Shown here: positions 1 to 22,406 of the stretch, one piece after another | Layout: the number at the start of each line of letters is the position of its first letter | Position numbering within the stretch: position 1 is the first letter of the stretch | Assembly (NCBI GenBank): GCA_023474975.1 | Contig: JAMCXE010000037.1 | Location: forward strand, 1-37,582 | Length of the DNA: 37,582 nt | DNA from: Patescibacteria group bacterium | Lineage (GTDB): Bacteria > Patescibacteriota > Minisyncoccia > UBA6257 > 02-FULL-45-10c | Reading direction: 5' to 3' | Notes under the pieces: model-generated | Seen by the model: the letters and a program-made list of their open reading frames with translations, nothing else | Told to the model about the DNA's origin: nothing | Databases searched by the model: none | Position numbers and translations under genes: made by a program

Positions 1-3000
1 AAAATAATATGTAAGAATTTTTCAAAAATATGACGCTGATTCTGAAGCGGTATTCCTATGCCATTATCTTTAACAGAGAGAATAAACTCTCCATTTTCCG
101 CTTTGGCGACTATCTCGGTTTCACCGCCTTTATCCTTGGAATATTTAATGGAATTGCTTATCAGATTGGCGATCGTTTGATAAATTTTATCTTCGTCGAT
201 GACAAGCGTATATTTGTCCGGCAAAAAATTCTTACATATTATTTTTACCCCTCTTTGATCGGCAAAAGAAGACAAGTTCTTAACGGCACGATCAATGATC
301 GGGGTTATTTCCGCTCTTGCTAAATTCAGATCGGAATAATGCCCGGAATCTATTCTGGAAATACTAAGCAAGTCATTTATCAAAGCTATCATCCTCTCGT
401 TGCTTTGATAGATCTCTTTCATTTTTACAAGTTGGTCTTCGCTTAGATTTTTCAATTTGTTCTCAAAGAGTGATTCCATCAGCCATTTTATTCCCGTAAC
501 CGGAGTTTTGAGCTGATGCGAAGCCACGGAAACAAATTCGCTCTTTGCCCTGTCCAATTCTTTAGCCACGGTAATATCCCGAAAAGTGCTTACAAAAAAC
601 TTAATTTCGTTTTTATCATCTAAAATGGGGGCAACCTTAATTTCAGCAATATAAGAATCTCCATTTTTTCTTTTATTTGTCATTTCTCCTAAATAAGACT
701 TCTTGTTCAATTTAATGGTCTTCCAAAAATCTTCATAAAACTCCTTAGACATTTGTCTTCCCCAGATCGCAGGGGTTTTACCGATAATTTCATTCAACGC
801 ATAGCCGCTCGTTTTTTCTACGGCGGAATTAGCATATAAAATTACTCCATCGGGGTCTGTAATGATGATATTATCAGCCGCATTGTCTACGGCTAATTTA
901 AATTTATTCAAATCGATATTTTTCATCTCCAACTCTTCGTCCTTTTTAACTATTTCGGTAATATCGGAAAGTATTATTAAAGAAGCCGCGCTACCTCCGT
1001 ATGTTATATTCGATCCTCTGACCAAGACCGTTAATCTTTTTCCCGATTTATTGACAACCACAATTTCATAATCTTTAACTTTTTTTCCGGCCAATCTTCC
1101 CCTCATCTCTTCTGTGGCTAAAGATATATATTTGGGATCAATATAGTCGAAAATAAACGATCCTATTATTTTTTTATGCGGATATCCCAAAAAATTTTCG
1201 GCGGTTTGACTCAACCATAAAATCTTGCCATTTTCATCATAAACCAGGACGTATTCCGTAGGGGGTAAATTAGAGATCAAATTCCTATACCTTTCTTCGC
1301 TTTCTTTTAATTTATATTCTGCTATTTTTTCTTTAAAGATGTTCCTGAATATTCCCTGCAGGTAAGGTTTGCCGTTTATGCGGATAACCGAAGCATTTAT
1401 TGAAACGGGGACTCTTTTACCGCCCCTTACCAAAACCTCAGACGATAAATTCTCTCTCTTACCGGACAGCTGCTCCCTAAAAACCTTCATCGCCTCATCC
1501 AGCAGATCTTTCGGATGAATGTCGCCCACCCTCATAGCGCGGATCTCTTCTCGAGGCCGACCCAAAAGTTTTTCTGCGGATCTATTGCAATCAACTATGC
1601 TTTTAGTAACCGGATCGGCGATAAAAATAGCATCGGCCGATCCTTCAAATAATTCACGATAATTGCGTTCGCTTTGTTTTAATGCTGCCTGATCCCTTAA
1701 TTTTTCTTCTCTTATTCTTATAGACCTTATGCCGTAAGAAAGATCATCGGCAAGCTGCTTCAATAATTTTATTTCAGTACCTTCAAATGTATACGGCTCC
1801 GTCGCATAGATATTAATAGCGCCGATAAGGCCGTTCACGTATAACGGCAAGCTTATGCTTGAAGCGTAGCCGCGTTTAATAGCAGCCGCTCTCCACGGTT
1901 TGAATTTTGGATCATGCAAAATATCGCTGCAAACAACTGCCTTGCCGGTTCTGATCGCCGTTCCGGTTGGTCCCCTGCCATGACTATTATCAGCCCAGCT
2001 GATCTTCAAATTTTTAAGATAGCCCTTTTCAAATCCCGCCCCCGCCACCACCTCAACGCTTTTATTTTTATCGTTTCTGGCATAACCGATCCAGGCCATT
2101 TTATATCCGAAATCAACGATATTTTTACAGATATTTTCCAAAAGTTTTTTTTCATCGGTGATATAGACCAATGCCTCATTGCATTTGCCGATCACTTCGA
2201 TCGTACGAAGAGTTCTTTGTAGTTTTAATTGAATTAGTTTGATATCCGATATATCCGAAGATATTACCATTACCAAGTCCGATCCATCACTATGGATCGG
2301 AGTTAAAACTATTTTATAATAGCTCTGTTTTTTACCTATACGCACCTCCCCCTCAAGCAATTTTTCTTTTTTATTTCTAAGCACATCCTTCAAATCTCTG
2401 ATCGTAAAAGCGCTATCCTCCACTGGAATAAAATCCCAAACAGACTTACCCATCAGTCTTTCGACCGGTAAGCTAAATCTGGCAGCGCTTTTTTTATTTA
2501 AAAATACGAAATTTCCACCAGCGTCTAATATAGTGATCGATTCCGGCGATTCCTCGACCAAGGATCTATATTTCGCTTCGCTGACAGCTAATTCCGTCTC
2601 AAGTTTTCTTTTTTTTGTCACATCCCTGAAAATCAAAACAACACCGACTACTTTTCCTTGACTATTTTTTATGGGAGCGGCGCTATCTTCTATAGATAAT
2701 TTTTTACCATCCCTGCCCATCAACACCGTATGATTTCCCAACCCAACGATCTTTCCGCTTCGCATAACCTTCATTGCCGGATCAATAACTTTTTTACCGG
2801 TCTTTTCATTAAAAATATTAAAAACACGGCAAAGCGGCTGGCCGATCGCTTTCTCTTCCGGCCATTTGGTAAGATCTTGGGCTACATAATTTAAAAAGGT
2901 TATCCGTCCTTTAACATCGGTAACCATAACCGCATCGCCGATACTTTTAAGCGTTATAGAAAGTTTTTCCCGATCTTGATATAAAGCTTCTCTTGCTTTA

Positions 3001-3443
3001 TTTTGTTCGGTCACATCACTGATCATCAACAATGAACCGATGATCTTACCCCGAGAATCTTTTAAAGGCACACCATCCACAGACATAAAAGATTCTTTTC
3101 CGTATATAGATGTGAACGGAAAAACTAATTTTTTTATTTTTCTGCCTTTTAATAATTTTTTAATATTGCCTGAAATTCCGGCCATAACCACATTTGGCAT
3201 TTCCTGAATTTTCATTCCCAATGCTCTAGAAACACCTCCCTTGGGTACTCCTATTATTTTTTCTGCAAAATAAGGATTTTCGAAAACAATTACGCCATTT
3301 TTATCGATCATTAATATTCCAAGCGGAGCATTTTTAACTAAAAGACTTTCTAACTGTTCTCTTTTTATACCATCCTCAATGGCAAATAAATTTTTAATAT
3401 TCAGGGGTTTTGATTTTTTATCCATTATTTTTTTATTTAACAT
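1..3443 (-). CDS. Sensor histidine kinase with about six PAS blocks, GAF, HisKA and HATPase_c. The 3' end runs off the left window edge. Absent from the supplied ORF track.
   Basis: I reverse-complemented and translated by hand. From the ATG at 3425 (an in-frame ATG also exists at 3443) the frame stays open to position 1: MDKKSKPLNIKNLFAIEDGIKREQLESLLVKNAPLGILMIDKNG... PAS-like blocks include KFKLAVDNAADNIIITDPDGVILYAN. A GAF-like block reads MAWIGYARNDKNKSVEVVAGAGFEKGYL..GRGPTGTAIRTGK. The H-box ELDRAKSEFVSVASHQLKTPVTGIKWL is encoded at about 480-570. The N/G1 boxes IANLISNSIKYS ... VKDNGIGIPLQNQRHIFEKF lie at 1-200. The track lists no minus-strand fragments at all for 1-3440, which fits a single open-ended ORF. 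Confidence 0.85.
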   Translation of the reverse strand, partial: MLNKKIMDKKSKPLNIKNLFAIEDGIKREQLESLLVKNAPLGILMIDKNGVIVFENPYFAEKIIGVPKGGVSRALGMKIQEMPNVVMAGISGNIKKLLKGRKIKKLVFPFTSIYGKESFMSVDGVPLKDSRGKIIGSLLMISDVTEQNKAREALYQDREKLSITLKSIGDAVMVTDVKGRITFLNYVAQDLTKWPEEKAIGQPLCRVFNIFNEKTGKKVIDPAMKVMRSGKIVGLGNHTVLMGRDGKKLSIEDSAAPIKNSQGKVVGVVLIFRDVTKKRKLETELAVSEAKYRSLVEESPESITILDAGGNFVFLNKKSAARFSLPVERLMGKSVWDFIPVEDSAFTIRDLKDVLRNKKEKLLEGEVRIGKKQSYYKIVLTPIHSDGSDLVMVISSDISDIKLIQLKLQRTLRTIEVIGKCNEALVYITDEKKLLENICKNIVDFGYKMAWIGYARNDKNKSVEVVAGAGFEKGYLKNLKISWADNSHGRGPTGTAIRTGKAVVCSDILHDPKFKPWRAAAIKRGYASSISLPLYVNGLIGAINIYATEPYTFEGTEIKLLKQLADDLSYGIRSIRIREEKLRDQAALKQSERNYRELFEGSADAIFIADPVTKSIVDCNRSAEKLLGRPREEIRAMRVGDIHPKDLLDEAMKVFREQLSGKRENLSSEVLVRGGKRVPVSINASVIRINGKPYLQGIFRNIFKEKIAEYKLKESEERYRNLISNLPPTEYVLVYDENGKILWLSQTAENFLGYPHKKIIGSFIFDYIDPKYISLATEEMRGRLAGKKVKDYEIVVVNKSGKRLTVLVRGSNITYGGSAASLIILSDITEIVKKDEELEMKNIDLNKFKLAVDNAADNIIITDPDGVILYANSAVEKTSGYALNEIIGKTPAIWGRQMSKEFYEDFWKTIKLNKKSYLGEMTNKRKNGDSYIAEIKVAPILDDKNEIKFFVSTFRDITVAKELDRAKSEFVSVASHQLKTPVTGIKWLMESLFENKLKNLSEDQLVKMKEIYQSNERMIALINDLLSISRIDSGHYSDLNLARAEITPIIDRAVKNLSSFADQRGVKIICKNFLPDKYTLVIDEDKIYQTIANLISNSIKYSKDKGGETEIVAKAENGEFILSVKDNGIGIPLQNQRHIFEKFLHII

Positions 3444-3448
3444 ATTAA

Positions 3449-6115
3449 TTACATGGCATTATTTTGCGGTTCGGTTTCTGCAGATTTTTTTATCGGCTCA
3501 TATTTTTCTTTTAAAGTGAAATGAAAGGTCGTCCCCTTGTTCTCTTCGGACTCGAACCAAACTCTGCCGCCGTGAGCATTGATATATTCCTTAACGATAG
3601 GCAATCCCAAACCCGTACCCTCAGTCTGCGACAATATTGCGTTATCCGCCCTGAAAAATCTTTCAAATATCCTGTGTTGGGCGCTCATCGGAATGCCAAT
3701 GCCGTCATCCTTCACCGAAAAGACGAATTCTCCGTTCTTTGACTCCGCGGTCACCAACACGACTCCGCCCTCAGGCTTTGAATATTTTATCGCGTTGCTG
3801 ATCAGATTATTTATAGACTGAATGATCTTTTCTTTATCCAGCATTATTTTATATCCGGCGGGCAGATCTATTTTAAGCTGAAGGTCTACCTTCTTTATCT
3901 TAGCTAACGGCTCAAGCGCTTTTAGCGTTGTTTTGATAAAATCAACAACGTCCACTTCCGACAAGGTAACACCCGAAGTTTTACCGCTTTCGATCCTAGA
4001 CAGAGTAAGAAGATCATTTATTATAGCCAGTGTTCTTTCGTTGCCGTCATAAACCTCACTAAGCATATCCAGCTGTTTCTTAGTCAAATTATTATCTTTG
4101 TTCCTTAGAAGGATCTCGACAAGCCACTTAACAGCGGTCAAAGGAGTCCTTAACTGATGGGACGTGACGGAAACGAATTCGCTTTTAGCCCTGTCCACTT
4201 CTTTTATCCTGGTAATATCCCTTTCCACGCCGACAAAAAAGACGACGTTGCCATTATGATCGAGTATCGGCCCAACTTTTATTTCGGCGATATATGTTTC
4301 GCCATTTTTACGTTTATTGTTTATATCTCCTATAAATGCCTTCTTATCGTCCTTTATGACCTTCCAAAAATTGACATAAAATTCCTTAGGCATCTGATTT
4401 CCCCATAAAGAAGGTCTGTTGCCGATTATTTCTTCTTGGCTATATCCCGTTATCATACTAGCCGCTTTATTGGCATACAAAACAACCCCATCCGGATCAG
4501 TGATAATAATATTATCGGACACGTTGTCGACGGCGAGCTTGAATTTGTTCAGATCTTGCACTGTTGATTCGACTTTCTTTTTCTCTTTTTCTATATCACC
4601 CAAAACGTTCATAAGAGCGACCTGGGATCTTTCCAAAGAAAAATTGGTCTCCTTAATATATTCTTCATATTTTTTCTTTTCAGAAATATTCCGGATAGTT
4701 AATAAAATAAAGGTAGTAGTAGTAGTAGTAGTAATTCGCGACATACTTATGGCCGTCCAAAATTCAGCCCCATCCATCTTCTTACACAAAAATTCAAACT
4801 CTTCCTCGCCTTTTTCTATAGCTAAACGAATGTGCTCCATAATTTTTTCGACTGAAAGCGATCCGTCGGGCTGACGTTCAGAACAATAATCAAACGGCGG
4901 GCGCGACATAAAATCTTTTTCGGAAGCATAACCAAACATTTTAACGATCGCCGAATTTACCGATATGAATTTGCCATCAAGAGACAGGATGGCCATTGCT
5001 TCTTTGGACTTATTAAAAAGCGAACTGTAATGCTCTTCGCTGTCTTTTAATTTTACCGTCATACTATCGGCTAATTCACGGGCGCGCGTATACGAATTTG
5101 CCAAAAAATACAAAATTAAAAATACCAAAAAACTTATAACGCTACCGATCGCCAAAATAAAAAGCGGCTCATATTCCTGCGAAGAAGAAATGAATCCATC
5201 GGGTTTACCGACAACCAACGAAAAATCATGTCCGCCCAAAACCAGCGGCAAAACAACGGTAAGCGAAGGATCGATAGAATAATTACGGCTCTGATCATTA
5301 AAATCATATAGCAAGGTACTGCTGGCTACGATCTTTCCATCATATATCTCAGCATCAATATCGGATGAACTTAGATCGGAAATGCTCTTGCGGAAGCTCT
5401 CAAAGAAACCATCTTTCAAAAAGATCATTCCAACAAAGCCATAAATATCAGAACGTTTTTCAAGCGGAGTGGAGGAAGCAACAATGTTTTTGTTATAAAC
5501 CGGCGCATAACCGACGAAACCGGGGACCTTGGGGTTAACAATTAGCAGCTCATCAGATAAAGAAAATTCCCCGGACTTTATGGCGTTGTTTATGACCGCA
5601 GCGCGGATAGGCTCGCTTAATACATCCAAACCAAACGCAGCGCTGCCTATAGTAGCGGGCTCATAGTAAACAATGGGCGCAATATGATCATTCTGCGTTT
5701 GCGGGAAAATTTTTAAATTTGTTCTGCCGAGATAGTTTTGAGAGTCGATCTCTTTCTCCAGATCCGCTTTTTGGCCCTGCTTCACATACCTGATAAAATT
5801 TATAGCATAAAGACCCGGCACATTTTTCTGAATTCCGCTATAAGCATAAAAAATGGAAAATTCTTTGGCGCTTACGTAATTACTCGAGTAGAACAAAGCG
5901 GCAAGCGCACTTACCTCTTCCGATTCCAATGTTTTAAAATTATCGGCAATGGCTTGTTGCACTAGCGCCGCCCTATTTTTTAGATCAGATTTACCAGCGG
6001 CTACCAAGCGATCGCTGACCACCCAGCTAATAACCGAAACGCCGATCATTAAAACAGCCAAAACTACCCAGGCTAATTTTTTCCTACCCGCTACATCTCC
6101 CTTTTGGTCGTCCAT
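3449..6115 (-). CDS. Membrane-anchored sensor histidine kinase: N-terminal TM, extracytoplasmic CHASE-like domain, second TM, two PAS, HisKA, HATPase_c.
   Basis: 888-aa ORF. TM segments are LAWVVLAVLMIGVSVISWVV and LFILAIGSVISFLVFLILYFL. The H-box is DRAKSEFVSVTSHQLRTPLTAVKWL. ATP-binding boxes are NLISNAIKYS, KDDGIGIP and GTGLGLPIVK. The CHASE assignment rests on architecture only. Confidence 0.9.
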   Translation of the reverse strand: MDDQKGDVAGRKKLAWVVLAVLMIGVSVISWVVSDRLVAAGKSDLKNRAALVQQAIADNFKTLESEEVSALAALFYSSNYVSAKEFSIFYAYSGIQKNVPGLYAINFIRYVKQGQKADLEKEIDSQNYLGRTNLKIFPQTQNDHIAPIVYYEPATIGSAAFGLDVLSEPIRAAVINNAIKSGEFSLSDELLIVNPKVPGFVGYAPVYNKNIVASSTPLEKRSDIYGFVGMIFLKDGFFESFRKSISDLSSSDIDAEIYDGKIVASSTLLYDFNDQSRNYSIDPSLTVVLPLVLGGHDFSLVVGKPDGFISSSQEYEPLFILAIGSVISFLVFLILYFLANSYTRARELADSMTVKLKDSEEHYSSLFNKSKEAMAILSLDGKFISVNSAIVKMFGYASEKDFMSRPPFDYCSERQPDGSLSVEKIMEHIRLAIEKGEEEFEFLCKKMDGAEFWTAISMSRITTTTTTTFILLTIRNISEKKKYEEYIKETNFSLERSQVALMNVLGDIEKEKKKVESTVQDLNKFKLAVDNVSDNIIITDPDGVVLYANKAASMITGYSQEEIIGNRPSLWGNQMPKEFYVNFWKVIKDDKKAFIGDINNKRKNGETYIAEIKVGPILDHNGNVVFFVGVERDITRIKEVDRAKSEFVSVTSHQLRTPLTAVKWLVEILLRNKDNNLTKKQLDMLSEVYDGNERTLAIINDLLTLSRIESGKTSGVTLSEVDVVDFIKTTLKALEPLAKIKKVDLQLKIDLPAGYKIMLDKEKIIQSINNLISNAIKYSKPEGGVVLVTAESKNGEFVFSVKDDGIGIPMSAQHRIFERFFRADNAILSQTEGTGLGLPIVKEYINAHGGRVWFESEENKGTTFHFTLKEKYEPIKKSAETEPQNNAM
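4713..4733. repeat. Perfect trinucleotide microsatellite, (GTA)7 on the plus strand, read as (ACT)6ACC on the coding strand. It encodes a Thr7 run inside the kinase.
   Basis: The sequence aggtagtagtagtagtagtagtaatt is read directly. The protein shows SRITTTTTTTFILLTIRNISEKKK. Confidence 0.95.
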
Positions 6116-7467: not shown

Positions 7468-7499
7468 AGCCCTCCTTTACAAAAGAGGGCTGTTTTTTT
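7468..7499 (-). terminator. Intrinsic terminator after the Cys-rich ORF. T-runs on both sides make it potentially bidirectional.
   Basis: agccctc-ctttacaaaa-gagggct, flanked by aaaaa on the left and gttttttt on the right. Confidence 0.7.
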
Positions 7500-7833
7500 A
7501 ACCATTAGGAAATAGTTCGAGGCCTATATGCTTTAAATATACTTCTTTATTTCTGCTGATAAGCAATTCCAAACCTAAATATTTCAGGTTTAAAATAACT
7601 TTTTCCATTTCTTTCTCGATAGCATCGAGCATCACAGATATCTTAGCAGAATCCTTACGGCACCGATCCTTTAAGATACATTCATCGCAGCTAACGCCGG
7701 CCAAACGCAGCTCGCATCCTTCGACGTTATCGCATTGCTTTATAAGCAAAAGATCGTATTTTGCCTTAAGCATCCTAAGCTCTTCCTTTCTTGTTAAAAT
7801 AATATCTTCAAGCCTGCCAAATCTCAGGTGCAT
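7498..7833 (-). CDS. Small Cys-rich coiled-coil protein of unknown function.
   Basis: ORF 7498..7851. I prefer the start at MHLRFG (7833) because GGAGG lies 5 nt upstream (cttggaggaaaatATG). The Cys cluster is CDNVEGCELRLAGVSCDECILKDRC. I recognise no family. Confidence 0.5.
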   Translation of the reverse strand: MHLRFGRLEDIILTRKEELRMLKAKYDLLLIKQCDNVEGCELRLAGVSCDECILKDRCRKDSAKISVMLDAIEKEMEKVILNLKYLGLELLISRNKEVYLKHIGLELFPNG

Positions 7834-7966
7834 ATTTTCCTCCAAGATCAATTTTTTAATGAACCGATTTTTAGTAAAGCAGAAACAGACCCATAAATCA
7901 ATCCCGCCTTGAAAAAATATTTTTTTTGGAATAAAATCAAAAGACTATAAACTAATAAATAAAAAA

Positions 7967-8570: not shown

Positions 8571-8615
8571 ACATCCCCGTTTTTGCAGAATAGCGAAAAC
8601 GGGGATGTTTTATTT
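8571..8615. terminator. Bidirectional intrinsic terminator between the convergent efp and ATPase genes.
   Basis: acatccccgtttt-(loop)-aaaacggggatgt, followed by tttatttc. Confidence 0.8.
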
Positions 8616-10162
8616 CAGATCGAATCTTTATCTTTTCCGGAACGATCATTTTCCGGAACTACCTCTTGATCTCCGAAATCCTTACCCAAACTTTGTTCTA
8701 AAACCTTTCTCAGATCAGCTATATCAACCTTCTTTTTTTCTGATCTATCAAAATGCTTTGGTTGTCTCTCTGGTCCGGACTCGATCCTTTCTTCGCTAGC
8801 CGGTTTAAGCACTTCCGACAAACGATGCTCGCCCTTTCTAAGTTCTCTTTCTTGCGCGAATTCAGCTCCGGAAGCGCTCCATTCTCCAGCTATCTTTGCT
8901 GAAACCGCAGCTATCGGCGTGCTATATGCCCTTCTACTATTCTCCACGATAACATCTTTATAATTTTCTTCGGGGGGCTTTGGCGGTGGGATCGTTTTTC
9001 CGGAAAAGGGTTTTGAAGCTACGCCATCTATCATTAGCTTTATGTAAAAATTATATTTTGGAAGATTAACCAGATCGTTAAGCATAAAGTCGGGCTGAAA
9101 TTCTTTTTCCAAGAATTCGGCATCATCAGCGCCAACTCTGAAAGTTATCATCGTACCTACGTTTCCAAAAATAGCATCACGCATTTTTGTGCTATCGCCA
9201 GAGATAAGCTGACGAATATATTGATGCGCCATAATAAGACACAGATGATATTTTCTGGCTTCCGACAAAATAGTGGCAAAAGAATCGGTGGCAAAATTCT
9301 GGAACTCGTCGACATAAAGATAAAAGTCCTTTCTCTCGTTTTCCGGTATATCCATTCTACTCATCGCAGCGAGCTGGATCTTACTTATGATCATAGCGCC
9401 AAGCAAATTAGAGTTGTCCTCGCCTATTCCTCCCTTTGAAAGATTCACGATCAATATCTTACCGTCATCCATAATTTTCCTCATATCAATGGAAGAGTGG
9501 GCCTGACCCAAAATATTCCTAATAAGCGGATTGGTAACGAACTGACCGACCTTGTTCTGAATAGCCGCGGTGGCCTCTGTTTCAAATTTCTGGCTGTATT
9601 TTGCAAATTCGTTCACCCAAAAACTTTTAACCACCGGGTCACTAAGACTGTCAACCACTCTTTTACGGTAATCCTTATCAGAAAGCATACGCATAATACC
9701 AAGAAGCGTAGAGCCGGGATATTCAAGAAGCGCCAAAAGCGTATTATTCAAAATATATTCCATCCTAGCAGACCACATATCAACCCATATTTTTTTAAAA
9801 ACCCCCATTATGCCGGATGCAACCAAATGTCTAAATTCCGAATTAACCTGTTCGAGCGGATTAAAGGCGATCGGAAAATTAACATCCTGAGGATTAAAAT
9901 AAATAACATCATTCACCCTTTCTTCCGGAATAAACTGTAAAATTTTTTCAGCGGCATCTCCGTGAGGGTCTATAAAGCAAACTCCTCTACCCGCTTTAAT
10001 ATCTTCAACAACCATCGTTTCCATAATGGTCGTCTTTGCAGAACCGGACTTTCCAACCAAATACATATGGCGGCGTCTGTCGTCCATTTTAATTCCGAAC
10101 TTCTTTTCGCTGTTCCTGAAATTCGTTATTCCGAAAATTACCGCATCTTCTTTATTGGCCAT
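8615..10162 (-). CDS. TraD/TraG/VirD4-family (type IV coupling protein-like) P-loop ATPase. It is a soluble form with no N-terminal TM helices.
   Basis: Walker A LVGKSGSAKTT. Walker B-like FYLYVDEFQNFAT. TraG/TraD C-terminal-type motif ARKYHLCLIMAHQYIRQL. It ends in a charged low-complexity tail. Confidence 0.75.
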   Translation of the reverse strand: MANKEDAVIFGITNFRNSEKKFGIKMDDRRRHMYLVGKSGSAKTTIMETMVVEDIKAGRGVCFIDPHGDAAEKILQFIPEERVNDVIYFNPQDVNFPIAFNPLEQVNSEFRHLVASGIMGVFKKIWVDMWSARMEYILNNTLLALLEYPGSTLLGIMRMLSDKDYRKRVVDSLSDPVVKSFWVNEFAKYSQKFETEATAAIQNKVGQFVTNPLIRNILGQAHSSIDMRKIMDDGKILIVNLSKGGIGEDNSNLLGAMIISKIQLAAMSRMDIPENERKDFYLYVDEFQNFATDSFATILSEARKYHLCLIMAHQYIRQLISGDSTKMRDAIFGNVGTMITFRVGADDAEFLEKEFQPDFMLNDLVNLPKYNFYIKLMIDGVASKPFSGKTIPPPKPPEENYKDVIVENSRRAYSTPIAAVSAKIAGEWSASGAEFAQERELRKGEHRLSEVLKPASEERIESGPERQPKHFDRSEKKKVDIADLRKVLEQSLGKDFGDQEVVPENDRSGKDKDSI

Positions 10163-10173
10163 AGATAATTTAA

Positions 10174-11433
10174 TTATATCGGTAAATTAGACGGGGGCTC
10201 GCCCTTTCTTGTTTCTACCCTGCGAAGCATCGGAGATCCAACCGATGTTATCGGGAAATGATAAACCGTAGCCAATTCTTCCGTGCACAGAATAGAAGTT
10301 TTGGTAGGAAACATTCTATCTTTATACGCATCGTACATAGCTCTCTTGGTATAGGTCTTACTTTTTCTAAATAAAAACTTTGCAGTGGGTTTAGGACCGG
10401 CCTTAAAAGAATTTTTATCCTGAGTTCCAAATTGCTTAAAAGCTCCAAGCAGAGCCGCAACATTAAGCTGAGTAAACTCATCTTTCCTGTCTATATATAT
10501 GTACCGAATCGCGGTTTGAAATCCGTATTTAGCTATTTTGTTCTCTATAGCTTCAACAACGTTTCTTTCTCCCGGAGATAAGGTAACGGTCTTGCCCTTG
10601 TCCTCGGAAGGCTTTGGGGCGGACCACTCCGGATGAATGACCGGCGCGCGAAAAAGATGATAGATAAATTCACCCAAACCCTTGATAACTCCCATTAAAA
10701 AGCTGGGTTTTTTATCCGGTTTTTTCCTGCCATACATCTTATCTCTTATTTCTTCTCCTTCTTTTTTCCAGCTGTCTCCAACCGGCCTGATAAGATACTG
10801 AAGCCAAAGAGCCTCACCTTCCTTCAATCTAGACATTACCTCAGTTATGGCTGAAACGGGATCAAGACGCTGCTCTTCAACATTGGCTTCAAAATACGGA
10901 TAGGTTTGTATCGGATACGGATTCGGCTTGGCTAATATATAATCGCCGGCGGCGATATCATATACATCGTTTGGCAAGATCGCGGGCATAAAATTAACAT
11001 AATCGTCGGAAACATTTATTTCCGCGTCTGAATATTCGGAATAGATCGCGTTCTCAACCAAGTGCTTGGCGCTTTCCGGAGCTCGAACAAAGAAACTGAC
11101 CCCACCGGCGTAACCAACCAATTCAAACGAATACCACGGAAGTACCTTTCCTTTAAAAAAAACCTCTTTCCACTCCGGATCAGGCTCAACAATACTATGA
11201 AGAGCGGAAAAAATATTATCCATTGCTTTTGGAGTTTTTAAAACATTGCCGGGGATCTTCAACTCCAAAAAAACCCACTTCATATTTTTAATATACAGCA
11301 TCTTCTGCCCGCGCTCCCAAAGATCAATAAAAATAAAAAATAAGCCAGCAGGCAAAATCACCCACCAGCCATATTTTATGATCATCCAAATAACATTAAA
11401 TGTTCCGGATATAATCGCCCAAAAGTCTATCAT
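10174..11433 (-). CDS. Membrane-anchored protein of unknown function: N-terminal 2-TM hairpin plus a large soluble domain. It lies directly upstream of the ATPase with an 11-nt gap.
   Basis: 419-aa ORF. The N-terminus AIISGTFNVIWMIIKYGWWVILPAGLFFIFIDLW is hydrophobic. I recognise no catalytic motif. The tight spacing implies co-transcription with 8615..10162. Confidence 0.65.
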   Translation of the reverse strand: MIDFWAIISGTFNVIWMIIKYGWWVILPAGLFFIFIDLWERGQKMLYIKNMKWVFLELKIPGNVLKTPKAMDNIFSALHSIVEPDPEWKEVFFKGKVLPWYSFELVGYAGGVSFFVRAPESAKHLVENAIYSEYSDAEINVSDDYVNFMPAILPNDVYDIAAGDYILAKPNPYPIQTYPYFEANVEEQRLDPVSAITEVMSRLKEGEALWLQYLIRPVGDSWKKEGEEIRDKMYGRKKPDKKPSFLMGVIKGLGEFIYHLFRAPVIHPEWSAPKPSEDKGKTVTLSPGERNVVEAIENKIAKYGFQTAIRYIYIDRKDEFTQLNVAALLGAFKQFGTQDKNSFKAGPKPTAKFLFRKSKTYTKRAMYDAYKDRMFPTKTSILCTEELATVYHFPITSVGSPMLRRVETRKGEPPSNLPI

Positions 11434-11513
11434 AGATATATTTTAACAAATAAATTTACAATTACCAATTTTCAATTTTCAAAAAACAAAAGAAGAGAGA
11501 GCAAAAATTTGCT

Positions 11514-12560
11514 TTATGCGAGATTAACCTGATACTTGCCATTATCAATACGAGTAAAATGCTTCTTATTTTGCAAATTGATAAATATTGTATTTTTCTT
11601 AAAAACTCTCTCCTTGAGAACGAGATCTATCAATTCTTTCGGTTTAAGAGGCCCGTGCTCTTTTAGAATCCTCATCATTACTTCTTTGGCGGTACCCGGA
11701 ACATAGCCATGCTCCTGAAGTCCATATATTCCCCTGCCAACCAAAACAAATTTGCTGTCCTTGATAAGCTCATTATGAACGGTCTGAGGATTTATGCTTT
11801 TTTCTGAATTTTTATATTTTCCTATTGCAGACGCAATCTCAACAAAGTGAAGAGGCTTCTTTTCCTTCTTCAGCACAGCATAAGCCCAATCGCGGATAGT
11901 CCGCGGATTAGTCTCCTTCCAATCAGATAATCCAAATTCTCCAAAACTATTAATGTGAAAATCCTTAGAAAGAGAAATGAAATTTATAGCAACTAAGTCT
12001 TTTAGATTGTGCGGTTTTATGGCCTCTGCAAAAACTTTATCCATACTACCATGAGAAAGAACTTTTTCTTTCTTGGTCTTCATATATTTAAGAAGCTTGG
12101 AAACGAAACTTAATATTTTTTTATTCTCGGACTCTTCCTGGTACCAGTAAGAGTAGAAACTTTCGTTCTCGGCCGAATACTTTGGATCGCCATTAAGCTC
12201 CAACAAGAACTTCACGCGATTATCAAAGACCGAAGAAGCGCTTTCGCTTAACAACAACTGAAGGTCGGCTAAAAGCAAAGCTTCGCGTCTTGCGCCGCCT
12301 AAATTTTTGATATGTTCATTTACCGTTGCTGCAAAATCTTTCAAGATGCCACTCTTGATAAATTCCCTGAGCTCTTTAAGCGCCCCAGCTTCGATCTGTC
12401 TCACCCTTTCACGGGTAATACCAAAACTAGTTCCTAGCTCGGCTAAAGTAAGGGTCTTGCCATCGCTTAAACCATAACGACGATCAATAACCTCCCTTTG
12501 ACGGGCATTCAAAACACTTAAGACCTGATCCAATAATTTTTCGATATTTACCGTATTCAT
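11514..12560 (-). CDS. Sigma-70 region-4-like HTH fused to a C-terminal HARE-HTH (RpoE-delta-like) domain.
   Basis: The N-terminus LNARQREVIDRRYGLSDGKTLTLAELGTSFGITRERVRQIEAGALKELR is classic sigma region 4.2. The C-terminus TIRDWAYAVLKKEKKPLHFVEIASAIGKY...VHNELIKDSKFVLVGRGIYGLQEHGY resembles HARE-HTH. Regions 2 and 3 of a true sigma factor are absent. Confidence 0.7.
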   Translation of the reverse strand: MNTVNIEKLLDQVLSVLNARQREVIDRRYGLSDGKTLTLAELGTSFGITRERVRQIEAGALKELREFIKSGILKDFAATVNEHIKNLGGARREALLLADLQLLLSESASSVFDNRVKFLLELNGDPKYSAENESFYSYWYQEESENKKILSFVSKLLKYMKTKKEKVLSHGSMDKVFAEAIKPHNLKDLVAINFISLSKDFHINSFGEFGLSDWKETNPRTIRDWAYAVLKKEKKPLHFVEIASAIGKYKNSEKSINPQTVHNELIKDSKFVLVGRGIYGLQEHGYVPGTAKEVMMRILKEHGPLKPKELIDLVLKERVFKKNTIFINLQNKKHFTRIDNGKYQVNLA

Positions 12561-21389: not shown

Positions 21390-22406
21390 ATGGATTCCAA
21401 TCTTTTGGCAAAAAACGACGCTGCTGAAGTTGATACTTCTATCCCGAAAATCTCTGTTTTGGTTTTTTTAGAAATAGGCTTTGCTGTAAGTTTTGGATAT
21501 TTTACGAGCAAATTTGTTAAAGCTCCCGGCGCCGGCACATTCACACTAGCCGGCGCTTCGGCGCTACTGTTCATGATCCTGTTCTTCCTAAGATCGCTTT
21601 TCGTCAAAGGAAAAAGTCTCAATCTTTTTATTATCTTGGGAGATGTAATAGCCCTGTCGTTATTTTTCATAATAAACAGCTATACATTTACAATGATAGT
21701 GGCTGCGGCCATTGCTTATCTGGCGCTTTACTCGGCCCTAAAAAAAAGCAAGAACGAACTATCGAACCAGTTAAATATCAAAACCGGAAAGATAGCGAGG
21801 ATATCAATTCCAAAAATTGCGTCAGCTTTAGCCGTCCTCATCTCCGTGGTCTATGCGCAGCCATTTTATCCTGCCAACAACATAGTTATTTCCAAAAACA
21901 TTATTAGCACAATAATCACTCCGTCTGAAACGCTATTAAAAATAGCGGATAATTATTTGCATCTCGGCTTAGGAGATTTTTCGGTCAATAAAACCCTTCC
22001 GGAAATAGCAGACCAAATGGCTTCATCGAGCATTGAACAACTTGCAGTACAAAACAACATCCCCGTCTCAGCCCTAGAATCACAAAGAAAGACGCTAACC
22101 AACTCAACTCTTCAAATGCTCGAAAAACAGTCAGAAAATATCGGAATTCAAATAAAAACCAACGAAACTGTTTTAGACGGAATATACAATTTTGTAAACA
22201 CTAAACTGCAGTCTCTGGATACAACCGTAAAATGGGTAGTGTATCTATCCTTATTCCTAGTAATATTCTTAACCATAAAAAGCTTGTTCTGGCTATTTTA
22301 TTGGCTAGCATATTTGTTCATCTTCTTATTTTATGAAATATTGATGGCGCTTGGATTTTCAAAAACAACCTATCAACAGATAAGCAAAGAAATAATTATT
22401 TTATAG
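21390..22406 (+). CDS. Polytopic membrane protein of unknown function, located between dnaK and dnaJ.
   Basis: 338-aa ORF with several hydrophobic segments at both ends and a polar middle. I recognise no family. Confidence 0.6.
   Translation: MDSNLLAKNDAAEVDTSIPKISVLVFLEIGFAVSFGYFTSKFVKAPGAGTFTLAGASALLFMILFFLRSLFVKGKSLNLFIILGDVIALSLFFIINSYTFTMIVAAAIAYLALYSALKKSKNELSNQLNIKTGKIARISIPKIASALAVLISVVYAQPFYPANNIVISKNIISTIITPSETLLKIADNYLHLGLGDFSVNKTLPEIADQMASSSIEQLAVQNNIPVSALESQRKTLTNSTLQMLEKQSENIGIQIKTNETVLDGIYNFVNTKLQSLDTTVKWVVYLSLFLVIFLTIKSLFWLFYWLAYLFIFLFYEILMALGFSKTTYQQISKEIIIL

Follow-up and report, generated by a model that had tools for sequence, protein, structure and literature searches.

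What does a coupling-protein-like ATPase do when it is encoded among housekeeping genes, and what is the membrane protein encoded beside it? The question is raised by contig JAMCXE010000037.1 of a Patescibacteria group bacterium (assembly GCA_023474975.1), which we examined over its whole length of 37.6 kb (the window). Two open reading frames (ORFs) on the minus strand, 10174..11433 (419 amino acids (aa)) and, immediately downstream, 8615..10162 (515 aa), had been read in an original prediction, made from the sequence alone, as a type IV coupling protein (T4CP) split into a soluble ATPase and a separate membrane partner: a chromosomal, probably core machine rather than the residue of a conjugative element. 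The two ORFs, the 11-nucleotide (nt) gap between them, both Walker motifs and the signature ARKYHLCLIMAHQYIRQL on which that reading was built are all present, and gene family scans found no relaxase, VirB4, VirB6, pilin or integrase in the window, as had been said. The two genes prove to be the halves of a single coupling protein, of a class that carries the Pfam domain DUF8128, and they are kept together with a third, sigma-like gene across a large part of the Patescibacteria.

A coupling protein in two halves

The downstream product is a soluble T4CP-type ATPase. Three coupling-protein families in Pfam match it above their gathering scores: TrwB_AAD_bind (PF10412; 47.9 bits, residues 25-344), T4SS-DNA_transf (PF02534; 38.3 bits) and TraG-D_C (PF12696; 31.6 bits, residues 281-352). 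Every NCBIfam equivalog model falls far under its cut-off, including the CD1115/TraJ model (a weak match, E 1.8e-10), and the protein is therefore a T4CP of no named subfamily. FtsK_SpoIIIE gives no Pfam match and HerA-type DUF87 reaches 21.5 bits, under its cut-off of 23.2. The prediction had left room for a clade outside the coupling proteins, such as FtsK or HerA; the ATPase passes the T4CP families and not these. In an AlphaFold model of residues 1-440 (predicted template-modelling score (pTM) 0.83) a P-loop core is interrupted by helices at residues 108-232, and the top Foldseek matches are DotL (E 1e-10), Cagbeta (TM-score 0.60) and TrwB (TM-score ∼0.5). HerA, DndH-C and the C-terminal domain of VirB4 match the model somewhat worse, and no FtsK chain occurs among the top 50.

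The protein thus shares with canonical VirD4, TrwB and TraD a P-loop domain with an inserted all-alpha domain, the signature motifs and the predicted fold. Walker A (GKSGSAKTT, with Ala where most homologues have Gly) lies at 10028-10054 (−) and Walker B (LYVDEFQNF) at 9293-9319 (−), with D285 and E286 invariant in 35 sequences; the all-alpha domain lies between them (∼residues 105-232; 9467..9850 (−)). The T4CP signature ARKYHLCLIMAHQYIRQL (9206-9259 (−)) falls within the TraG-D_C match and contains the invariant RKY…HQ residues of the homologue alignment. Across 35 homologues the catalytic motifs are invariant. The ATPase ends in a charged, disordered tail (residues 431-515; 8618..8872 (−)), which varies in length and reaches ∼380 residues in homologues. 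Within it is a short conserved motif, KKVDIADLRKVLEQSL (8687..8734 (−)), a candidate for a helix on which a partner protein docks: in the form KKVDIxDLRxALExSL it is found in 24/34 homologues, 23-48 residues before the C-terminus. The tail recalls that of F TraD, whose C-terminal tail binds TraM.

Canonical T4CPs carry two transmembrane helices on the ATPase itself, lack DUF8128 and are encoded with relaxase and type IV secretion system (T4SS) genes. The window's ATPase has no such anchor of its own: it contains no hydrophobic segment (the top 19-residue Kyte-Doolittle window is 1.24), in agreement with the prediction that its N-terminal hairpin is missing. The anchor is found on the separate partner. 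The 419-aa product is hydrophobic at residues 1-40 only (11314..11433 (−)), a stretch with a conserved SWWxxLPxxLFF motif that is recognised by hydropathy, alignment and AlphaFold alike. It had been described as exactly a two-helix hairpin, and of this description the N-terminal anchor stands while the second helix is insecure: across 36 homologues residues 3-19 are amphipathic, with ∼2 charged residues on average, and only residues 22-39 are uniformly hydrophobic, while the AlphaFold model has residues 4-50 in a single unbroken helix. It follows that the anchor consists of either one helix or two.

Nor is the partner just the missing anchor, since it also carries a 350-residue domain that canonical TrwB and VirD4 lack. 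Judged from sequence, this domain is Pfam DUF8128 (PF26449), the precomputed tag being present on all 120 homologues among the matches listed. The partner gave no match, as single sequence or as profile, to PDB sequences, NCBIfam, PADLOC or our local copy of Pfam, which does not hold PF26449, and we found no paper that mentions PF26449 or DUF8128. The predicted cytoplasmic alpha/beta domain spans residues 50-395 (10249..11286 (−)) and contains an invariant TPKAM motif and the motif EELATxxHFP; the model consists of the N-terminal helix followed by this domain (predicted local distance difference test (pLDDT) 80, pTM 0.74). The protein ends in a conserved Pro-rich peptide (…RKGEPPSNLPI; 10177..10248 (−)) in which G411, P414 and P418 are invariant, preceded by residues of low pLDDT (398-408).

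The relation between the two products became apparent from plasmids. Searched with the ATPase core (tblastn), plasmids yielded relatives from Firmicutes, Actinomycetota, haloarchaea and others, and in several of these the matching part makes up the C-terminal half of a protein of much greater length. On the B. subtilis plasmid NZ_CP154917 an 885-aa protein carries DUF8128 at residues 54-307 (hhalign 97.6%, E 3.6e-12) and the ATPase at ∼residues 322-735 (tblastn, 26.9% identity); its gene is followed by a Replic_Relax relaxase gene, conjugal transfer genes and a gene for a VirB4-sized ATPase. An Embleya plasmid encodes an 812-aa protein with a membrane anchor, a collinear DUF8128-like half (weak, E 0.0034) that shares the junction motif, and the ATPase at the C-terminus; its neighbours are genes for PrgI, an ATPase, a relaxase and NlpC/P60 proteins. 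An 858-aa protein of a metagenomic conjugative element (P0265) is tagged PF26449 and matches the T4CP families, and lies between TraC-like, VirB4-like and single-stranded DNA-binding protein (SSB) genes on one side and Replic_Relax relaxase, ParA and FtsK-like genes on the other. A further protein (P0264, 835 aa, on a 3.1-kb contig) is closer to the window: its DUF8128 matches at 99.7% (E 4.4e-27) and its ATPase is 38% identical to the window's (E 1e-95).

Such fused proteins are tagged by Pfam's own PF26449 model, and of the full-length representatives in the Bacillus-type clade almost every one has 750-990 aa, with DUF8128 at the N-terminus. In the Gram-positive forms (the 885-aa and 812-aa proteins above and proteins of ∼825 aa in the B. 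cereus group annotated as "DUF87/HerA domain-containing") both domains are homologous to the window's and stand in the same order, the ATPase belongs to the same subclade and the junction motif EELAxxxHxP…PPxxxP is the same. They differ in being one polypeptide, encoded on mobile elements beside a Replic_Relax relaxase and VirB4-like or other T4SS genes, whereas the window's form is split, chromosomal, without a relaxase and paired with the sigma-like gene; the Bacillus fusions also lack the N-terminal membrane anchor of the window's partner. A fused form occurs within the Patescibacteria as well. In Saccharibacteria (P0311, GCA_020639315.1), on a 371-kb contig, a single 857-aa protein carries the same DUF8128 N-domain and an ATPase 55% identical to the window's (E 1e-166).

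Because single polypeptides hold both halves in the same order, the pair in the window represents a single coupling protein divided between two genes. The proposal of a split coupling protein is borne out by P0264, P0311 and the B. subtilis plasmid protein in particular. By the classical argument from gene fusion and fission the two products would act as one unit. The alignments place the point of fission between the partner's Pro-rich peptide, which serves as the linker into the ATPase in fused homologues (P0264, P0266, P0291), and the N-terminal strands of the ATPase; in the window it is occupied by the spacer TTAAATTATCT (10163..10173 (−)). Judging by homology and gene neighbourhood, the DUF8128-T4CP family clearly descends from Gram-positive conjugative coupling proteins. 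Pontibacillus has a stand-alone DUF8128 ORF of 423 aa (98.3%, E 1.9e-14) beside the ATPase gene and near conjugation genes, and split forms therefore exist outside the Patescibacteria too.

ATPase homologues of 705-812 aa were also considered as fusions and set aside, their extra length being disordered tail only, and the N-terminus of a 708-aa Bradyrhizobium homologue is not DUF8128-like. On a Pontibacillus megaplasmid (L093, 10410-12867) and in Priestia (L011, 7001-9379) the ATPase match comes in three tblastn pieces over ∼2.4 kb, which suggests an intein-type insertion or gene decay. The closest ATPase relative outside the Patescibacteria, on a Sulfitobacter plasmid (L006, 7986-9173; 38.5% identity, E 3e-93), is a stand-alone gene of 395 aa without a DUF8128 partner, flanked by a recombinase gene and transposase genes, and is uninformative.

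An arrangement of similar outline has been described. Reviews recognise a subfamily of "T4CP lacking TMD" (transmembrane domain) that uses a small separate membrane protein, as in TraJ/TraI of pIP501 (PMC7434980, PMC13037476), and both there and in TrsK/TrsJ of pSK41 the coupling ATPase is soluble and the membrane protein is encoded immediately upstream. The likeness is one of analogy and not orthology: pIP501-type TraI is ∼143 aa long and unlike DUF8128 (hhalign probability 0.3% against the 143-aa TraI equivalent of pRE25, by which homology to the partner was rejected), the genes lie inside a tra operon, of which there is none in the window, and TraJ/TrsK-type ATPases belong to a different subclade.

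The modelled fold of the partner could point in another direction: a split VirB3/VirB4-like assembly ATPase, in which the partner would combine the VirB3 hairpin with the N-terminal domain of VirB4. Such a pair would power the building of a pilus or channel instead of choosing substrates. Its best Foldseek matches are R388 TrwK/VirB4 chains (three entries, E 3.4e-5 to 2e-3, probability 0.98-1.0), the motors of VirB4 and the T4CPs are paralogues, and the order of parts (a short anchor, an alpha/beta domain, then the motor) is that of VirB3-VirB4 (TrwM-TrwK); moreover, Patescibacteria have separate genes for TrsD, which resembles the VirB4 N-terminus (PMC12102498). Yet the TM-scores of these matches are just 0.31-0.37 (root-mean-square deviation 9-13 Å), with BBE/VAO-type oxidoreductases nearly as good, and the partner's profile has no similarity to the VirB4 of the B. 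subtilis plasmid or to TrsD and TrsE of pSK41. The motor matches T4CP profiles and neither CagE_TrbE_VirB nor AAA_10, and the conjugative elements carry a separate VirB4-like gene alongside the fused DUF8128-T4CP. We therefore regard a split VirB4 as improbable, and treat the modelled resemblance to the VirB4 N-domain as a lead only.

A conserved chromosomal module

Relatives of the DUF8128 partner were found in at least 576 species genomes in a scan of one genome per species. We analyzed gene order in the best 80 of these at least 576 loci, which, where named, are from Parcubacteria-type and related lineages. The ATPase gene lies directly downstream of the DUF8128 gene on the same strand in 72/75 assessable loci, and the split form was found in all 79 that could be assessed, with a median spacer of 26 nt (11 nt in the window). 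Directly upstream, again on the same strand, is a gene with Sigma70_r4 and HARE-HTH domains (73/76). The exceptions to the three-gene order are few: L030, L090 and L091 are without an adjacent ATPase gene, and L052, L060 and L090 without an adjacent sigma-like gene. Further out the neighbourhood is looser: secF is found further upstream in 34/51 loci, and efp, mnmA and comEC downstream in closer relatives only.

In the window the sigma-like gene (11514..12560 (−)) is the first of the module. The prediction had given secDF and efp as the flanks; both are in the window, but the direct upstream neighbour is this gene and not secF. Its 348-aa product has an N-terminal sigma-70 region 4 helix-turn-helix (HTH; Sigma70_r4, 4.4e-16) and a central HARE-HTH domain (4e-9), and residues 8-76 match region 4 of RpoD/SigA in the PDB (E 4.7e-15); DNA or RNA polymerase is its predicted binding partner. 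An 80-nt A+T-rich spacer (11434..11513 (−)) separates it from the DUF8128 gene. Two overlapping pairs of promoter-like hexamers in this spacer (11482..11453 and 11468..11440) are weak evidence of a promoter, their count being not above the shuffled expectation.

The same association holds in Saccharibacteria. Directly upstream of the fused gene is a full-length homologue of the sigma-like protein (35% identity, E 2e-51), and the context is again one of housekeeping genes; the two flanks, dprA-topA and ftsW-mraY-L10/L12, are unrelated to those of the window. That the sigma-like gene is kept with the fused or split coupling protein despite unrelated flanks indicates that the conserved unit is a module of three genes (two when fused). 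A sigma-like gene in Pontibacillus was compared with that of the window and rejected as a homologue.

The ATPase is the most conserved of the products compared, with a median identity to the window of 62.8%, against 52.6% for SecD, 50.3% for EF-P, 43.4% for MnmA, 42.9% for SecF, 37.2% for the sigma-like protein and 35.9% for DUF8128: the motor is under strong purifying selection. The divergence of the two halves follows that of SecD (Spearman 0.70 and 0.75). The module is vertically inherited, core and chromosomal in the Patescibacteria, as the prediction had supposed, with the fused form in Saccharibacteria and the split form in Parcubacteria-type lineages, and its inheritance spans at least two very divergent classes.

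These data bear directly on the possibility that the pair is the remnant of a decaying integrative and conjugative element (ICE). In its favour, genuine coupling proteins of conjugative plasmids and ICEs occur among the homologues. But neither ORF is disrupted and both are strongly conserved, 72-73 of ∼75 species loci share the gene order, divergence follows SecD, and base composition is even along the window with no anomaly at the pair. To the lack of integrase, relaxase and VirB genes in the window can be added the outcome of a tblastn search with Gram-positive queries, of limited sensitivity: the 1.1 Mb surrounding 83 loci, together with the window, yielded nothing resembling VirB4, VirB6 or a relaxase. 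The sporadic occurrence beside relaxase and VirB genes that a degraded element would show is not seen in the Patescibacteria, and a remnant, rejected in the prediction, is effectively refuted. The absence of a link to conjugation machinery is true of the locus and not necessarily of function, given the conjugative ancestry of the protein and the presence of a T4SS elsewhere in ∼80% of genomes.

The same distribution is the opposite of the patchy occurrence of defence islands, and makes it very unlikely that the ATPase is part of a MADS- or HerA-type anti-phage system. Such a role is suggested by the best single profile score of the ATPase, which is to PADLOC mad8 (E 3.6e-17, 60.8 bits); the DndH and HerA models match weakly. 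The conjugative DUF8128-type T4CPs match mad8 equally (60.7, 51.7 and 59.4 bits), whereas TraJ/TrsK-type ATPases give no mad8 match; since the match is common to conjugative T4CPs, the mad8 model reflects an ATPase subclade and not a defence role. No NurA, mad or other defence genes lie nearby, and the module is near-universal, syntenic and vertically inherited.

Viral and phage collections held essentially nothing. The only match in 2.9 million viral contigs was a partial fragment at the edge of one of them (IMGVR_UViG_3300009537_000513; L099, 63-194), which covers the final 44 residues of DUF8128 and probably stems from a misclassified cellular contig. At the edge of one locus (L061, 1-498), ∼8 kb upstream of the module, lies another T4CP-like copy with 54% identity to the window's ATPase, in keeping with the published figure of about two T4CP homologues for each genome of the phylum (PMC12102498).

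A probable motor for a secretion system encoded elsewhere

That orphan T4CP homologues are widespread in Patescibacteria is already known. Quiñonero-Coronel et al. (2025) reported 5,713 VirD4-type homologues in 2,918 of 3,035 genomes (96%), and VirB4 in 2,417 genomes, forming a clade nested inside the Gram-positive MPF-FATA class; ∼80% of genomes have a T4SS (PMC12102498). In Southlakia an essential T4SS cluster was described that is without recognisable coupling or relaxase proteins (Wang et al. 2023; PMC10633639). In the literature we found neither the split nor the sigma-like partner described, nor DUF8128 as part of a coupling protein.

On balance we lean towards the view that the module is the substrate receptor and motor of a chromosomal Gram-positive-type T4SS encoded elsewhere in the genome: one DUF8128-T4CP, split in two, forming a membrane-tethered hexamer. 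A coupling role is favoured because both the T4SS and this class of T4CP trace to Gram-positive conjugation, and ∼80% of genomes have both. In this role the upstream product would supply the short membrane anchor and the cytoplasmic DUF8128 domain, and the downstream product the motor of the FtsK/HerA superfamily, with its nucleotide-binding domain, all-alpha domain and charged tail with the putative docking motif. The halves would pair 1:1 to give a ring of six heterodimers at the cytoplasmic membrane; the ring would bind the substrate, and ATP hydrolysis would drive its hand-off or threading. By analogy with TraD and TraM, the tail motif may dock a partner, and the sigma-like protein may provide a contact with nucleic acid or RNA polymerase.

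Several observations weigh against this. Just 148 of the 5,713 T4CP homologues lie near virB4 and relaxases are nearly absent from the phylum (109 only; PMC12102498); subtracting one of that paper's genome counts from the other leaves at least 501 genomes with a T4CP in which no VirB4 was detected, which is partly a matter of incomplete metagenome-assembled genomes. In Southlakia t4cp is dispensable by transposon sequencing (Tn-seq) while T4SS genes are essential (PMC12102498, PMC10633639). The conservation of the ATPase exceeds that usual for conjugative coupling proteins, and the alanine in place of the usual second glycine of Walker A, being shared by close relatives, is a lineage variant rather than a sequencing error. 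As to Southlakia, the 857-aa Saccharibacteria protein is probably, judged by class, the counterpart of the dispensable t4cp. In model systems some T4SS functions, pilus biogenesis for one, do not require a T4CP, and the non-essentiality of t4cp therefore does not refute a coupling role.

Much of this evidence would be expected of a machine that works without a T4SS, which we judge possible but distinctly less probable than the coupling role: an exapted coupling protein that has become a membrane-anchored translocase of DNA or nucleoprotein, targeted by the sigma-like protein, whose task may be DNA uptake or export or chromosome handling. T4CPs are spread more widely than VirB4 and almost never adjoin virB4, t4cp is dispensable where the T4SS is essential, and the ATPase is conserved above SecD and EF-P. 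The tie to a predicted DNA- or RNA-polymerase-binding protein is kept in two classes with unrelated flanks, and exaptation of T4CPs was left open by the authors of the 2025 survey, who state that it cannot be ruled out (PMC12102498). The neighbours of the module also hint at DNA handling, with dprA-topA in Saccharibacteria and comEC downstream in close relatives. But dprA-topA is a common gene pair anyway, and the linkage to comEC, seen in the first three genomes and suggested in advance as a check for com genes, is not general (7/39 loci). FtsK has been reported for the Saccharibacteria TM7x, which weakens the idea that the module simply replaces FtsK, since no replacement is needed. No physical tie between the sigma-like protein and the ATPase is known, and we found in the literature no experimentally established precedent for T4CP function independent of VirB4.

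A more specific version of the exaptation idea, which we put forward only tentatively, is that a coupling protein was captured early in the Patescibacteria and turned into a core membrane motor that works with the sigma-region-4/HARE-HTH protein and without a T4SS. One possibility is that in these ultra-small epibionts such a motor carries DNA, or nucleoprotein associated with transcription, through the membrane or along it. If the module does work without a T4SS, a motor of mobile elements would have become part of core cell biology, with a cellular function that has no counterpart in other bacteria.

Whether as coupling protein or as independent motor, the module is of wider relevance. A large part of bacterial diversity is patescibacterial; these organisms need host cells, and secretion machines are thought to be central to their lifestyle. 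The orphan T4CPs of the phylum, which the 2025 survey noted but did not analyse further, can now be defined as a distinct DUF8128-bearing class, shared with Gram-positive conjugative elements, split in the largest patescibacterial lineages and kept in fixed association with a sigma-like gene. A probable role is thereby given to a Pfam domain whose function was unknown. The three genes, the junction motif and the tail motif are testable units for the genetically tractable Saccharibacteria.

Other genes of the window and its relatives

The remainder of the window is housekeeping in character. It contains efp, mnmA, secD and secF, hrcA-grpE-dnaK-dnaJ, cysS, dnaB, recR, tgt, murE, ftsI, mraW and mraZ, genes for CorA and a Na/Ca exchanger, a GNAT gene, a lysyl-PG-synthase-like gene, a radical SAM gene and two tRNA genes.

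In three relatives comEC (Competence with or without Lactamase_B) lies 3-5 kb downstream of the module, at L001 16791-19106, L004 14319-16567 and L005 14324-15841. The position it has in the closest relatives is occupied in the window by two large sensor kinases, encoded in tandem at 1-3457 (−) and 3449-6115 (−). Both are of the PAS/histidine-kinase type: one has 888 aa, and the other exceeds 1,152 aa and is cut off by the contig's left end. For a reduced genome two such proteins are a notable expense.

Between mnmA and efp is an ORF for a Cys-containing protein of 117 aa (7498-7851 (−)), whose best match, to DUF7653 (E 0.03), is unconvincing. A 338-aa ORF without a Pfam match lies between dnaK and dnaJ (21390-22406 (+)), and in a Harrisonbacteria locus (L001, 3345-4325) a 326-aa protein, also of no family, is encoded directly upstream of dnaJ; the two are possibly a conserved member of the chaperone operon.

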